Shown in pieces: positions 1,548 to 24,000 of a stretch of DNA of 24,000 bases (the first letter of the stretch is position 1; every line of letters begins with the position of its first letter). The notes under the pieces are model-generated. The model was given only the letters and a program-made list of their open reading frames with translations. It was not told the DNA's origin and did no database searches. The translations under genes and the position numbers were made by a program. This stretch comes from Bacillus sp. 2205SS5-2 (lineage in GTDB: Bacteria; Bacillota; Bacilli; Bacillales; Bacillaceae_K), in the NCBI RefSeq assembly GCF_037024155.1, contig NZ_JAYKTS010000002.1, positions 182,373 through 206,372 of the forward strand. Reading direction: 5' to 3'.

Positions 1548-3392
<1,845 letters not shown>

Positions 3393-3413
3393 GATTGGCT
3401 GACAAAATAAAAA

Positions 3414-3450
3414 GTCAAAGTCAGGAAGTTCTTGACTTTGGCTTTTTGTT
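3414..3450 (+). terminator. Intrinsic terminator downstream of dnaK
   Basis: A 12-bp stem pairs GTCAAAGTCAGG (3414-3425) with CTTGACTTTGGC (3431-3442). It includes two G-T wobble positions and a 5-nt loop, and is followed by TTTTTGTTT. Confidence 0.8.
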
Positions 3451-3452
3451 TA

Positions 3453-3635
3453 GGAAAAGCTCATTTCGTATACATTTTGGCTCTTTAGTCTAATTTTAGA
3501 TGGAATCCTCCAATTTGCAGTTGATACCCATCAAAGATAGACGAAAAGGTACCCGGAAACGAAGCGATATCACCGTTTATAGACTGAATCGAAGAACAAA
3601 ATCTTTGCGAAAACAGCCTTAGGAAAAAAGTGGAA
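3453..3635 (+). repeat. Contiguous copy of a ~185-bp A+C arm element (also present, split, at 17570-17660 plus 18020-18105)
   Basis: It aligns by eye with the phoH-pgpH gap. Left-side matches are AAAGCTCATTTCGTATACAT vs AAGGCTCTTTTCGCATACAT and TTGATACCCATCAAAGATAGACG vs TTGATTCCCATTAAAAATAGACG. Right-side matches are CCCGGAAACGAAGCGATATCACCGTTTATAGACTG vs CCCGAAACAAAGCTATATCACCGTTTATATACTG and CGAAAACAGCCTTAGGAAAAAAGTG vs CGAAAACAGCCTTTTGAAAAAAAGTG. The two ends are imperfect inverted repeats. Confidence 0.8.
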
Positions 3636-3656
3636 GAGGTAGTCACTTCAGCAGGG

Positions 3657-3899
3657 AGTCTTATCAAGCTGCAGTGGCTAAGGACTCGGGCATTTGTCAG
3701 CCCACTGCGTGAATCAAGATTCACTACGTGTTCTGCCAGATGCCTACCGTCCTAAAACAGCCACTTTCGCTTTTAGTCTTATCAAGCTGCAGTGGCTAAG
3801 GACTCGGGCATTTGTCAGCCCACTGCGTGAATCAAGATTCACTACGTGTTCTGTCAGATGCCTACCGTCCTAAAACAGCCACTTTCGCTTTTAGTCTTG
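3657..3899 (+). repeat. Tandem hairpin modules: 2 x 118 bp (3657-3774, 3775-3892) plus a 7-bp start of a third
   Basis: This is a direct head-to-tail repeat, 117/118 identical; the only difference is C3736 vs T3854. Each unit is an imperfect long hairpin closed by GCAGTGGCT...AGCCACT. A degenerate module tail (AGTCACTTCAGCAGGG, 3641-3656) precedes the array. Confidence 0.95.
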
Positions 3900-3926
3900 A
3901 TATTATTTTTTTTTGTGTGTTAAAAT
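3897..3926 (+). promoter_or_regulatory. Candidate sigma-A promoter for dnaJ: TTGATA -18 nt- TAAAAT with TGn extension
   Basis: TTGATA is at 3897-3902 and TGTTAAAAT at 3918-3926, about 37 nt upstream of the dnaJ ATG. The -35 hexamer is formed at the junction of the truncated third repeat unit (AGTCTTGA) with unique sequence. This is motif matching only. Confidence 0.4.
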
Positions 3927-3962
3927 AACCTTTATGCGAAACGAAACGGGAGTGTTGGTCTG

Positions 3963-5081
3963 ATGAGTAAAAGGGATTATTACGAAGTATTAGGTTTGGG
4001 GAAAAGTGCTTCTCAAGATGAGATTAAAAAATCATATCGAAAACTCTCTAAAAAGTTCCATCCAGACATCAATAAAGAAGCGGATGCAAACGAGAAGTTT
4101 AAAGAAGTGAAAGATGCTTATGAAACGTTGAGTGATGAGCAAAAGCGCGCTCACTATGATCGCTATGGTCATACTGATCCAAATCAAGGGTTTGGTGGCG
4201 GAGGAGCTGCCGGTTTTGGCGGTTTTGAAGATATCTTTAATTCATTCTTCGGTGGTGGAGGCGGAAGACGCCGTGATCCTAATGCCCCACGTCAGGGAGC
4301 AGATCTTCAGTATACAATGACGTTAAGCTTTGAAGAAGCGGCTTTTGGGAAAGACACTGAAATAGATATACCAAATGAAGAAACGTGTGAAACTTGTAAG
4401 GGGAACGGCGCTAAACCAGGAACTAAGCCAGAAACATGTTCTCATTGTCAAGGAACAGGTCAATTAAATGTAGAACAAGATACGCCATTTGGTCGAATTG
4501 TTAATCGTCGGGTATGTAACCATTGCGATGGAACAGGACAAACGATTAAGCATAAATGTTCTACTTGTGGTGGAAAAGGAAAAGTAAGGAAACGCCGTAA
4601 AATTAGTGTGAAAGTGCCAGCAGGAATTGATGATGGTCAACAACTTCGTGTTACAGGTCAAGGTGAACCTGGAGTGAACGGAGGACCGGCCGGGGATTTA
4701 TATGTGGTATTCCATGTAAGAACGCATGATTTCTTTGAACGAGATGGTGACGATATTTATTGTGAAATGCCTTTACATTTTTCTCAAGCAACGCTAGGTG
4801 ACGAAATTCAAGTACCGACTCTTCATGGAAAAGTGAAGTTAAAAGTGCCAGCAGGAACGCAAACAGGCACACGTTTCCGCCTAAAAGGTAAAGGTGTACC
4901 AAATGTTAGAGGATACGGGCAAGGTGACCAGCACGTGATTGTGAAAGTTGTTACGCCAACCAAATTATCAGATAAACAAAAATCTTTATTGCGTGAGTTT
5001 GCTGATATCAGTGGCGGAATGCCCGATGAGCAGCATCACAGTATTTTTGACAAAGTAAAACGTGCCTTCAAAGGTGAATAA
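3963..5081 (+). CDS. dnaJ: Hsp40 co-chaperone DnaJ
   Basis: It has a J-domain with an HPD motif (KKFHPDINK), a G/F-rich linker and four CxxCxGxG zinc-finger repeats ([32 protein letters not shown]). Confidence 0.98.
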
Positions 5082-8217: not shown

Positions 8218-8398
8218 GATTCAGTTAGCAAATGTGATTTTTAAAATGGTGGAAGTCTAGGTACTGACACCTTGCTCATTTCTTAGCTATCGTGTTTGAG
8301 AATCATAAAAAGGGTAACAATAAGGTAGAACTCGTCTTTTCGACGAGAATTTGTTATGATGAAGAGGTACATACAACTGAGTGAAAGGAGAGAAAAAT

Positions 8399-11443: not shown

Positions 11444-11914
11444 GTGCTATCTACCCTTTCATTGGTGTAGGTTTAAAGACGTATAAACGTAAATGATCAA
11501 AGGTATCTGTCATTTACTAAACGCATGAAGATAATAGGAACTCTTTAACATTTTGCATTGTATTTTCGTTTTTGCAGATACAAACAAAAAGAAGGCGAAC
11601 AAAGAAACGGTCAAGTACGTTTTAGCCATACCTATAAAATGTCTTTTTATTGTATCATACGAGAATGTATACCGTTAATATTTTGAGCATGATAGATGGG
11701 TTTGAAAAGTGTTTACCTTAAATTGAATCTATCATGTTCTATACTTATTTCTACTGCATATTTTTTTGGTACTCCAAGCATTCATAACAAGCAATATTTC
11801 TGATGAAAGTATTTGACCATTGATATTTTTCACCTTGGATATTACGACACGCACTTATATGCAACTTCTGAAACGATTACTCGTGTCGACTTCTGCTGGT
11901 GAGAATTACCTAGT

Positions 11915-12098
11915 CAGTCGGCATGTCTTATGCTGGTCGCCGATAAACGGACACCTTGCGCTTTTCTTATTGTCTAGCTCCAGGTGCCATCGGCTCGAGG
12001 TCATAAGACAATCCGCCCAAAAGGTCAAAGGGCGACCATTCAGCCGGCATGTCTTATGCTGGTCGCCGATAAACGGACACCTTGCGCTTTTCTTATTA
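11915..12098 (+). repeat. Diverged hairpin-module array: one complete 126-bp unit (11973-12098) preceded by the 58-bp 3' part of another (11915-11972)
   Basis: The 58-bp direct repeat TCAG(T/C)CGGCATGTCTTATGCTGGTCGCCGATAAACGGACACCTTGCGCTTTTCTTATT occurs at 11915-11972 and 12041-12098 with 1 mismatch. The unit boundaries AGCTCCAGGTGCC...GGACACCTTGCGCTTTTCTTATT resemble the AGCTGCAGTGGCT...AGCCACTTTCGCTTTTAGTCTTAT boundaries of the 3657-3899 modules. Confidence 0.85.
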
Positions 12099-12256: not shown

Positions 12257-13558
12257 ATGAAAAAATTATTGCCCTTTATTACTCTTTTAATTTCATTAGG
12301 ATTTATTATTCCGTCGGTCATGTCTGCTGAAAATGAAAAAGTTGCAATTATCCCTTTACATAAAGAAGTTGAAAAAGGGTTAGCGGCTTTTTTAGATAGA
12401 GCAATATCAGATGCAGAAGAAGCAGGTGCGGATACGATCATTTTTGATATTGATACTCCTGGAGGATTCGTCGATGCTGCCGCAGATATATCTCAATTAT
12501 TAAATGACGTAAAAATAAAGAAAGTGGCTTTTATTAACGAACAAGCATTGTCAGCGGGGGCATTTCTTGCTCTAAATGCTGATGAAATCTATATGGTGCC
12601 TTCGGCGAGTATGGGAGCAGCGGCGGTTATTGATCAACAAGGAAATACGGCAGGAAAGAAAGCCGAAAGCTATTGGCTTACAACGATGGAAACGGCTGCA
12701 GAGAATAGTGGGAGAGACCCAATTTATGCGCTCGCAATGGCAGATGAGGACATTGATCTTCCTGATTTACGAGCACCAAAAGGAGCATTGCTTACCTTAA
12801 GTGCCAAAAATGCAGAAAAGGTTGGGTACTCAGAAGGAACGGTGAAGGATCTTGATGAACTTTTAACGTTGCTTAACCTAGATGATGCGGAAGTAATCAA
12901 TATCAATGAGTCTTTTGCAGAGAAATTAGCCCGCTTCTTTACCAATCCAATTGTAGTGCCTATTTTATTATCTGTAGCAAGCTTAGGATTTATCGTAGAG
13001 CTATATTCACCTGGATTGGGTATTCCAGGTGCGATGGGACTAACGGCTTTATTATTGTTCTTTTATGGACATCTAGTTGCGGGGCTAGCGGGTTATGAAA
13101 CAATCATCTTATTTCTTGTAGGTGTGATACTAATCGTGATAGAACTTTTATTGCCTGGAGGGATTTTTGGCATTATTGGGGTCGCTGCAATTTTGGGGAG
13201 TATTATCATGGCAGGCGGAAATGTCATGTACATGGGAGTGTCGCTTATTATCGCCTTACTTGTTGCGATAATTGCAATGGTCGTGCTAGTTAAGGTGTTT
13301 GGCAAAAAAATGAGTTTGTTTAATAAAATTATTTTAAGGGATTCAACGAACACAGAGAATGGTTATGTTTCTAATCGTACACGAGAGGAGCTTATTGGTG
13401 CGATAGGAATCACGCAAACTGCTCTTCGTCCGGCTGGAACAATCATGATCGAAGACGAACGAATTGATGTAGTCTCAGAAGGTGGCTATATTCCAGAAGA
13501 AAGAAAAGTAAAAGTAATCAAAACAGAAGGATCGAGAATTATTGTTCGGGAACTGTAA
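12257..13558 (+). CDS. nfeD: NfeD-family membrane-bound ClpP-class serine protease (YqeZ)
   Basis: The 433-aa product has a signal/TM N-terminus and a ClpP-like domain (IDTPGG, ALSAGAF), then a block of TM helices and a C-terminal NfeD OB-fold segment. It lies directly upstream of floA. Confidence 0.85.
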   Translation: MKKLLPFITLLISLGFIIPSVMSAENEKVAIIPLHKEVEKGLAAFLDRAISDAEEAGADTIIFDIDTPGGFVDAAADISQLLNDVKIKKVAFINEQALSAGAFLALNADEIYMVPSASMGAAAVIDQQGNTAGKKAESYWLTTMETAAENSGRDPIYALAMADEDIDLPDLRAPKGALLTLSAKNAEKVGYSEGTVKDLDELLTLLNLDDAEVININESFAEKLARFFTNPIVVPILLSVASLGFIVELYSPGLGIPGAMGLTALLLFFYGHLVAGLAGYETIILFLVGVILIVIELLLPGGIFGIIGVAAILGSIIMAGGNVMYMGVSLIIALLVAIIAMVVLVKVFGKKMSLFNKIILRDSTNTENGYVSNRTREELIGAIGITQTALRPAGTIMIEDERIDVVSEGGYIPEERKVKVIKTEGSRIIVREL

Positions 13559-17538: not shown

Positions 17539-17569
17539 CCTGAATATATTATTCAGGTTTTTCTTTTTG
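17537..17569 (+). terminator. Intrinsic terminator downstream of phoH
   Basis: AACCTGAAT (17537-17545) pairs with ATTCAGGTT (17551-17559) around a 5-nt loop, followed by TTTCTTTTT. Confidence 0.8.
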
Positions 17570-17660
17570 AAAGGCTCTTTTCGCATACATTGTGGCTATT
17601 TCATCTGGTTTTTGATTAAATCGCCCATTTCCATGTTGATTCCCATTAAAAATAGACGGA
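17570..17660 (+). repeat. Arm A of the A/C element (left half; homolog of 3453-~3547)
   Basis: See the alignment blocks listed for 3453-3635. It ends with AAAAATAGACGGA immediately before the first hairpin module. Confidence 0.8.
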
Positions 17661-18019
17661 TCTAGCTGCAGTGACTAGCAGCTATGGGACAAATGTTATC
17701 CAACTCCAAAGGTCAGGACCTTCTCCGTTGGATAACATTTGCCCGCCGCTGCTGGGCGAGCCACTTCCGCATTTCGTGATCCAGCTGCAGTGGCTAGGGA
17801 CTCGGGCATTTGTCAGCCCACTACGTGAAGCAGGCTTCACTGCGTGTACTGCCAGATGCCTGCCGTCCCAGGGCAGCCACTTCCGCATTTCTCTGATCCA
17901 GCTGCAGTGGCTTGCGGCTCGGGGTCAAATGAATAACCCTCCAGCGATGCAGGCATCACCTCCGAGTTCTTCATTTGCCTGACGCCGCAGGACAGCCACT
18001 TCCGCATTTCGTAAATGAT
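17661..18019 (+). repeat. Three contiguous hairpin modules (17661-17780, 17781-17897, 17898-~18019)
   Basis: Each unit opens with AGCTGCAGTG(A/G)CT and closes with AGCCACTTCCGCATTTC. The middle unit is a close relative of the 118-bp units at 3657-3892. The outer units have different but equally self-complementary interiors (for example GGGACAAATGTTATCCAAC with GTTGGATAACATTTGCCC, and GGTCAAATGAA with TTCATTTGCC). Confidence 0.9.
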
Positions 18020-18105
18020 GCCCGAAACAAAGCTATATCACCGTTTATATACTGGTGCGAACAGCAACAAACTTTACGAAAACAGCCTTTTGAAAAAAAG
18101 TGAAA
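18020..18105 (+). repeat. Arm C of the A/C element (right half; homolog of ~3552-3635)
   Basis: The sequence CCCGAAACAAAGCTATATCACCGTTTATATACTG...CTTTACGAAAACAGCCTTTTGAAAAAAAGTGAA matches 3552-3635 block for block. Confidence 0.8.
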
Positions 18106-18180
18106 TTTTCGAGGAAAACTGTTATGATTTTACATAATTAACGTTATTGTACCTATCATATAGGGATAGGAAGGAGACCT

Positions 18181-23960: not shown

Positions 23961-24000
23961 ATTCGTAATCCAGCTGCAGTGGCTCTGAGGCTCGGGCAAA
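23961..24000 (+). repeat. 5' part of a further hairpin module, truncated by the window edge
   Basis: ATTCGTAATCCAGCTGCAGTGGCTCTGAGGCTCGGGCAAA matches the inter-module junction consensus CATTTCGTGATCCAGCTGCAGTGGCT-n6-CTCGGG seen at 17770-17810. Confidence 0.8.

Follow-up and report, generated by a model that had tools for sequence, protein, structure and literature searches.

The 24,000-nucleotide (nt) stretch of DNA analyzed here, hereafter the window, comes from Bacillus sp. 2205SS5-2 (contig NZ_JAYKTS010000002.1, positions 182,373 to 206,372 of the forward strand) and shows the gene order hrcA-grpE-dnaK-dnaJ-prmA-rsmE-mtaB ... phoH-pgpH ... recO, with all of these genes on the + strand. Our subject is the spacer between dnaK and dnaJ, which is 570 base pairs (bp) long (3393-3962), as opposed to 296 bp in B. 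spongiae and 193 bp in Rossellomorea, the sources of the nearest relatives of the window's DnaJ (87% and ~83%, respectively). We conclude, with a probability of roughly 0.7, that this spacer is a mosaic of two independent non-coding repeats, i.e., a MITE (miniature inverted-repeat transposable element) and an array of hairpin modules, to which a recent local tandem duplication has been added. The features of the locus are the following.

1569-3392, + strand: dnaK (Hsp70), the upstream gene (Pfam HSP70, E 3e-253; list of open reading frames, ORFs)
3405-3452, + strand: predicted dnaK intrinsic terminator, a hairpin of ~22 bp followed by the T-run TTTTTGTTT (predicted folds)
3450-3457, no strand assigned: left copy of an 8-bp target-site duplication, TTAGGAAA (end-pair test)
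3458-3618, + strand: MITE of 161 bp, made of arms A and C, with imperfect terminal inverted repeats AGCTCATTTCGTATACATTTTG... / ...CAAAATCTTTGCGAAAACAGCC (inverted-repeat alignment)
3619-3626, no strand assigned: right copy of the target-site duplication, TTAGGAAA (8/8 identical to 3450-3457)
3641-3656, + strand: degenerate 3' tail, keeping the register of the array, left by a module that was truncated or suffered an internal deletion (pattern match)
3657-3774, + strand: hairpin module 1, 118 bp including the 10-nt linker AGTCTTATCA (Tandem Repeats Finder; covariance model R1, 90.5 bits, E 2e-22)
3775-3892, + strand: hairpin module 2, 117/118 identical to module 1 (Tandem Repeats Finder and direct comparison; model R1, 92.2 bits)
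3893-3898, + strand: AGTCTT, a repeat of the first 6 nt of the unit (Tandem Repeats Finder, unit comparison)
3897-3926, + strand: sigma-A-like dnaJ promoter, TTGATA, 18 nt, TG-n-TAAAAT (promoter scan, 10/12 matches with TG)
3963-5081, + strand: dnaJ, the downstream gene (protein 100% identical to DnaJ of Bacillus sp. 2205SS5-2, a sequence found in one genome only)

An earlier note, written from the letters of the window without database searches, had given the same spacer length and had placed the repeats between a dnaK terminator and dnaJ, and both statements hold. The terminator itself is predicted by folding and, in an alignment of spacers, is also kept in B. spongiae and Rossellomorea; a simple terminator scan of 3300-4000 made no call, the predicted dnaK terminator included. 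The dnaJ promoter stretch is nearly identical in B. spongiae, the 296-bp spacer of which retains the terminator, a single TTAGGAGA and the promoter, and contains neither MITE nor module (a degenerate module hinted at there by the MAFFT alignment received no support from model R1).

A MITE behind the dnaK terminator

The upstream part of the repeats recurs some 14 kb downstream in the window: 3443-3543 matches 17558-17658 (77%, E 1e-15) and 3553-3629 matches 18021-18098 (82%, E 3e-16). Nothing lies between the two matches at the dnaK-dnaJ copy, in agreement with the earlier description of arms A and C as contiguous there. Together, the arms form an element without coding capacity (3458-3618), the inverted ends of which span about 22-33 nt in local alignments (GGCTCTTTTCGCATACATTGTGGCT... 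and, on the complement, ...CGAAAACAGCC). These ends belong to the GGCTCTTTTCG type, as in ISL3 elements, and the two window copies end in AGCTCATTTCG.../...CGAAAACAGCC and GGCTCTTTTCGC.../...CGAAAACAGCC. The second window copy is as follows.

17573-18087, + strand: sister MITE with three diverged central modules at 17660-18010 (arm homology, model R1, end-pair test)

Both copies lie within direct 8-bp duplications, that of the sister being TTTTGAAA (17565-17572 and 18088-18095), and a copy without module in Mesobacillus maritimus (locus L001, 1290-1470) is flanked by AAAAAGAA/AAAAAGAA. When the eight left/right end pairs across all loci were compared, three showed a perfect 8-bp flanking duplication and one matched at 7 of the 8 positions; three perfect matches are beyond chance given that only eight pairs were tested. 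In addition, B. spongiae provides the empty site, i.e., the terminator and a single TTAGGAGA followed by unrelated sequence. Published ISL3-family elements and an ISL3-derived MITE have GGCTCTTCG ends (GGCTCTT...) and 8-bp duplications (PMC6305408, PMC11448079). Because of the inverted ends, the 8-bp duplications, the empty site and these published features, arms A and C are, as judged from sequence, a MITE of ISL3 type.

The element is thus a new member of a well-known kind. With the ISL3-derived MITEs (the Microcystis MITE, which has GGCTCTTCG ends, and ISArsp7) it shares the GGCTCTT.. start, the 8-bp duplication and its nature as a small, non-coding, multicopy element, a likeness that rests on the first 7 end bases (GGCTCTT), the two window copies beginning with AGCTCAT and GGCTCTT. 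It differs from them in that the insertions are found directly after terminator T-runs, which holds for each of the three chromosomal copies, two of them from the window and one from M. maritimus, and in that hairpin modules or a small ORF are present as passengers in some copies. What the window exposes in this respect is a family of ISL3-type MITEs that has the T-rich DNA behind terminators as its target. A role of the A-C element as structured RNA was also considered and rejected, its overall fold being no better than that of shuffled sequences (z +0.7).

A few related sequences were encountered outside the window. The 551-kb plasmid of M. foraminis (L021, 2501-3070) carries a 570-bp relative with GGCTCTTTTCG-type ends and a 7/8 duplication (TAACATGA/TAACATAA), which contains a small hypothetical ORF instead of modules and is located between two IS110-family transposase genes. 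A different MITE family is present in Bacillus marasmi (L007, 4624-4873, and L009, 7140-7447), with ends GGCTGTGTT / AGCTGTGTT and duplications of 8 bp (ATTTTTTT in L007, read on the + strand, and TTTGATTA in L009); both of these MITEs carry one hairpin module and other hairpin-like sequence centrally. Finally, Bacillus phage KKP_4047 (L015, 1501-1528) and three related Herelleviridae contain 28 nt that agree at 28/28 positions with the MITE's right end (CAACAAACTTTACGAAAACAGCC...); the match is mainly intergenic and overlaps a gene annotated as a hypothetical protein at its 3' end. No left end of the MITE was found in the ~120 nt upstream of the phage match, which may represent a solo MITE end or a shared motif.

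A near-identical pair of 118-bp units

Downstream of the MITE, Tandem Repeats Finder reports 2.1 copies of a 118-bp period at 3657-3898 (99% matches), and direct comparison agrees that these are two head-to-tail units identical at 117/118 positions, just as the earlier note had them. The predicted RNA folds reach -44.2 kcal/mol (z -5.3) for module 1 and -45.3 kcal/mol (z -6.1) for module 2. The sole difference between the units (C3736 in unit 1 vs. T3854 in unit 2) falls on unit position 80; in the minimum-free-energy fold, this position faces T41 across a 1x1 internal loop, of which it forms the 3' side, and is thus unpaired, as had also been noted. Upstream of unit 1 by one linker length, the tail at 3641-3653 (AGTCACTTCAGCA) matches the 3' motif of the modules with 2 mismatches, and such matches occur seven times in the window vs. 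0.21 expected by chance; the degenerate module tail described previously is consequently real in terms of motif and register, although model R1 gave 3641-3656 no score.

The downstream border needs a correction. The seven bases that the earlier note assigned to a third unit are reduced to six (AGTCTT, 3893-3898), the seventh being different from that of the unit. The TCTTGA that follows unit 2 is part of the native promoter region of dnaJ and is also found in B. spongiae, and AGTCTT overlaps the -35 region of the promoter. AGTCTT is either microhomology at the boundary of the duplication or native sequence.

The 99% identity of the two units contrasts with the 55-83% found between other module pairs in the window. 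To judge from this difference, the pair is a very recent duplication or is under homogenization, which is what the note had proposed. A mis-assembly of a single unit, or of a longer array, is conceivable in a draft genome, where a near-identical 118-bp tandem is prone to collapse or expansion. However, the one-base difference means that two distinct copies were resolved, and arrays of 2-4 units are found in many independent assemblies and metagenomes; hence, we regard an artefact as very improbable. More generally, repeats of this kind cause assembly breaks and copy-number polymorphism, the latter being usable for strain typing.

A hairpin-repeat family of Bacillaceae

The modules of the spacer belong to a family of repeats of ~113-123 nt, each of which folds as a ~100-nt hairpin (-44 to -55 kcal/mol, z -2.7 to -6.5). 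The base of the hairpin is conserved (TCYAGCTGCAG...CTTCCGCTTTTC; 5' side TC-AGCT-CA, 3' side CTT-CGCTTTT, both near-invariant) and includes two fixed mismatches, T.C and C.T, in the basal stem. Some unpaired bases are conserved as well; the stems, on the other hand, are hypervariable yet always paired. The pairing statistics were computed on a MAFFT alignment of 29 modules that is independent of covariance model R1, the latter being built from 29 modules. In the alignment, 92% of the cells pair, compared with 71% in shuffles and 33-53% in slid controls, and double (compensatory) changes are seen in 30/32 pairs, with 175 double-change cells vs. 53 expected. Model R1 recovered 55 complete units at E<1e-12, every one of them strand-specific.

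An exact-pattern scan of one genome per species located modules in 8 species and 14 stretches (Mesobacillus maritimus, Cytobacillus gottheilii, Bacillus mesophilum, B. marasmi, Alkalihalophilus marmarensis, Enterococcus sp., and two Bacillaceae metagenome-assembled genomes), the genome of the window not being among the hits, and a second pattern added 15 metagenome contigs with modules, several of them marine. The units are arranged head-to-tail with linkers of 8-14 nt, neighbors within an array often being different variants, and the arrays are intergenic, e.g., after rplS, after or between tRNA genes, in the fabH-fabF spacer and elsewhere, commonly right after the T-run of a terminator. At the orthologous site downstream of rplS, C. 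gottheilii has three units, whereas B. mesophilum has two. Arrays also have a polarity: the 3' end is complete, and the first unit is often 5'-truncated and usually near-identical to the 3' half of the neighboring unit, which hints at a directional copying or insertion process.

Searches of several collections for known relatives were negative. Rfam 15, at both gathering thresholds and permissive E-values, gave no match on the modules of the window or of the 14 loci; within 3380-3970, the best sub-threshold matches (E>0.1) coincide with the dnaK terminator, with the arm region or with 3883-3948 and not with a module. Neither the region nor a consensus-type array had a BLAST match among the PLSDB plasmids, and the module pattern was not found in viral contigs; BLAST of 17555-18135 (MITE plus three modules) against phages returned only the 28-nt MITE-end match in the four Bacillus phages. 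When 347 ORFs from 30 sources (the window plus 29 loci) were compared all against all by BLAST, no neighboring gene such as a transposase or reverse transcriptase proved recurrent. Literature searches on named Bacillaceae repeats of this kind, EFAR, bcr1-18 and Bacillaceae-1 turned up no matching description, which is weak evidence given the limited literature coverage. The modules thus appear to be an uncatalogued family of chromosomal interspersed hairpin repeats of several Bacillaceae lineages. The window exposes a large hairpin-repeat family of Bacillaceae with unusually clear covariation, array polarity and strand asymmetry.

Some individual copies deserve mention. The two modules of Enterococcus sp. 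PF1-24 (L008, 6127-6367) have an AT-rich composition (GC 0.40-0.42), a sign of long residence more than of a recent transfer. In B. marasmi (L011, 2189-2714), three modules are interleaved with two opposite-strand tRNA genes, so that they are antisense inside a tRNA cluster. In C. gottheilii, a full-length unit of the Rfam Bacillaceae-1 motif (RF01690, 66 bits; L002, 1291-1357) splits a module at ~1190-1385 and lies on the opposite strand; this copy looks like an insertion, and the motif may itself be an interspersed or mobile hairpin.

Probable assembly of the spacer from two independent repeats

The earlier note saw the dnaK-dnaJ locus as the same parts as those at 17.6-18.1 kb in a different architecture. 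The parts do recur there, but the idea that arms and modules form one modular element is not supported. At dnaK-dnaJ, the modules lie outside the 8-bp target duplication of the MITE; therefore, the two elements are juxtaposed here and are not one unit. Further, modules in other genomes are mostly without such arms. Removing the MITE and one copy of the duplication leaves the terminator, ~20 nt, the degenerate truncated unit and the units, and the same order (terminator, truncated unit, units) also occurs after terminators in other genomes.

The order of events that we infer is the following. An old module array would have formed first, and its 5' tail has presumably decayed since. The MITE, presumably moved in trans by an ISL3-family transposase, would then have inserted into TTAGGAAA, just after the T-run of the terminator, and hence between terminator and array. 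The tandem duplication of the 118-bp unit would have come last, by replication slippage or unequal recombination, possibly helped by the AGTCTT microhomology that brackets the unit. The architecture at 17573-18087 is that of the same MITE family with a module array nested centrally.

Alternatively, arms and modules might constitute a single composite element, A-Bn-C, comparable to the pneumococcal BOX elements, with the dnaK-dnaJ copy having been rearranged such that the modules were displaced outside the arms. In BOX, boxA and boxC surround a variable boxB array, A-C forms without B modules exist, and slippage or unequal crossover changes the number of repeats (PMC3049150). The sister copy (17573-18087) closely resembles this arrangement in having two partly complementary arms around a head-to-tail array, the number of modules between the arms being variable and including zero (three there, none at 3458-3618), and the B. 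marasmi MITEs likewise hold a central module. However, a perfect 8-bp duplication flanks the A-C unit (3458-3618) and leaves the modules outside, the MITE of M. maritimus and the plasmid copy of M. foraminis are module-free, and the B. marasmi MITEs have different ends (GGCTGTGTT). Nor are the modules confined to a composite element as BOX would have it, given that most arrays in other genomes are armless. The comparison, made by architecture and not by sequence, also reveals a difference in the units themselves: boxB is ~45 nt long, whereas the modules here (113-123 nt) are long hairpins on their own. On this evidence, we find a composite element distinctly unlikely.

In terms of the operon, the mosaic of MITE and modules accounts for the 570-bp length of the spacer by selfish repeats, with terminator and dnaJ promoter intact, and no special heat-shock regulation is needed. 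On this reading, the two repeats landed in DNA between terminator and promoter that is dispensable. Since dnaJ retains a promoter of its own, the dnaK operon is likely affected only slightly, at most through impeded or processed read-through from dnaK. The locus is ordinary and the module family moderately interesting.

Maintenance at the DNA or the RNA level

The modules could be a functional structured RNA, for instance a cis-acting stabilizer within a 3' untranslated region (UTR), an attenuator, an RNase III target or a small RNA, that tunes dnaK-dnaJ read-through. Such a role would fit the strong compensatory changes and the conserved unpaired motifs, as well as the UUUU(C) that follows the hairpin and the usual site just after genes, mostly in the orientation of the latter; similar repeats (BOX, Correia, ERIC) do affect transcripts (PMC3049150). 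The comparison of the two strands argues otherwise. The complementary strand folds more stably in 48/51 modules with RNA parameters (mean -53.1 vs. -46.0 kcal/mol) and in 4/4 modules with DNA parameters, G.U pairs number 63 on the sense strand vs. 132 on the complement, and the basal T.C / C.T mismatches become G.A / A.G on the complement. Moreover, some copies are antisense to the tRNA cluster and to fabH-fabF, each unit is without a promoter ahead of it, and the five module sites within 24 kb have diverse neighbors and match no Rfam family. Units end with CGCTTTTA or CGCATTTC, i.e., with only 3-4 T, as opposed to the U-run of >=5 in 8 required of an intrinsic terminator, and the scan of 3300-4000 was negative, so we rejected the module as a terminator.

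A sense-RNA role is therefore disfavored, because the complementary hairpin is more stable, G.U pairs are scarce, the promoter is downstream of the array, antisense copies exist and terminal T residues are few; we consider a functional structured RNA quite improbable. The same reasons (in particular, the downstream position of the promoter and the more stable antisense strand) speak against transcription of the modules as a dnaK 3' UTR or a dnaJ 5' UTR, which the earlier note had envisaged, while a weak incidental effect on read-through transcripts is possible. Instead, we favor the view that the modules persist and spread as DNA, by way of a single-stranded hairpin or cruciform, and not as a sense-strand RNA. 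The hairpin might be kept via templated correction within a quasi-palindrome, or one strand might be recognized by a protein. These hairpin repeats are candidates for new DNA- or RNA-level mechanisms.

A more specific possibility is that the modules are an active mobile element recognized by structure, the enzyme reading the base of the hairpin on single-stranded DNA or copying units in a polar fashion; REP/RAYT, the ends of IS200/IS605 and integron attC sites would be the analogues for hairpin recognition on a single strand. The conserved base with two fixed mismatches next to hypervariable but paired stems, the favored strand, the arrays with fixed 3' end and variable truncated 5' end beside terminator T-runs, and the frequent sequence difference between array neighbors, which suggests serial insertion, are all consistent with such an element. 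Yet across the 30 sources the modules have no recombinase, transposase or reverse transcriptase as a recurrent neighbor, no target duplication was seen, plasmid and phage searches returned no copies, and the near-identical pair is most simply a local duplication. We thus view active mobility as unlikely, although polar copying, if it occurs, would produce head-to-tail arrays with fixed 3' and truncated 5' ends. Also rather unlikely, in our view, is the broader conjecture that the modules are an undescribed structure-recognized element that inserts or copies in a polar manner beside terminator hairpins and occasionally seeds MITEs, or else a widespread functional antisense or structural RNA.

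It is important to note several observations that weigh against the mosaic of independent repeats maintained at the DNA level. For the MITE, the 24-kb window contains no ISL3 transposase with matching ends. For the modules, no target duplication or empty/filled pair was defined for any copy, and their central position in MITEs of two genera means that they could be a genuine MITE component rather than secondary insertions. The copy number of the near-identical 118-bp tandem is a count from a draft assembly. Strong covariation and conserved unpaired bases are expected of a functional RNA as well, and the modules are mostly co-oriented with the flanking genes (~10/13 loci, judged by eye).

Relation to known interspersed repeats

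In their behavior, the modules are like other interspersed hairpin repeats (BOX, EFAR, REP/BIME, Correia). EFAR repeats are said, after Venditti et al. 2007, to be palindromic repeats assembled from several sequence types and often located near gene ends or terminator-like hairpins, with units that are reportedly ~170 bp long and form two stem-loops. Both EFAR and the modules are stem-loop repeats of Bacilli, and one Enterococcus genome (L008) has two modules; this comparison is by description only. EFAR repeats of enterococci are also listed among the bacterial MITEs (PMC3733652).

The REP sequences of Proteobacteria are 20-40 bp long, are marked by GTAG or CGTC as a tag and, inside BIMEs, take alternating orientations (PMC3733652, PMC2817692). 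REP, BIME and REPIN elements resemble the modules as intergenic palindromes in arrays that undergo compensatory change and of which one strand is presumed to be recognized. Nevertheless, we rejected the modules as REP or REPIN, which have an associated RAYT gene, given units of ~118 bp (113-123 nt) that are all direct, with no tag visible and no recurrent gene nearby.

Other candidates were set aside as well. For integron attC sites, inspection showed ends of AGCTGCAG / CTTCCGCT rather than RYYYAAC ... GTTRRRY, together with linkers of 8-14 nt and no ORFs. Rfam Bacillaceae-1 (RF01690) is likewise a small intergenic hairpin of Bacillaceae but differs in length (67 nt), sequence and structure. 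The idea that the modules, on their complementary strand, bring in the Bacillus Chi site (AGCGG) was rejected by reasoning, the units of the window having AGCGA or TGCGG and the orientation being unproductive.

Other module sites in the window

Five sites with modules or module fragments are present in the 24 kb (3641-3898, 8246-8285, 11914-12097, 17660-18010 and from 23962 onwards). Two of them provide the following additional features.

11914-12097, + strand: second subfamily, a 5'-truncated unit followed by a full unit, with a period of 126 (model R1, 114.8 bits for 11972-12092)
23962-24000, + strand: start of another module, 78 nt after recO and cut by the end of the window (model R1 partial hit, 23968-24000)

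The second subfamily lies upstream of an NfeD-family gene (12257-13558) and is an instance of the truncation described above: 11914-11971 and 12040-12097 have 58 nt in common, 57/58 of which are identical. At 8246-8285, a 40-nt fragment of a module tail directly follows mtaB. Lastly, an ORF of 103 amino acids with a GTG start (17671-17982) consists entirely of the hairpin modules nested in the sister MITE, and a protein search with it found one match only, a 105-amino-acid protein at NCBI. This ORF is almost certainly spurious and exemplifies the spurious ORF calls to which such repeats give rise.

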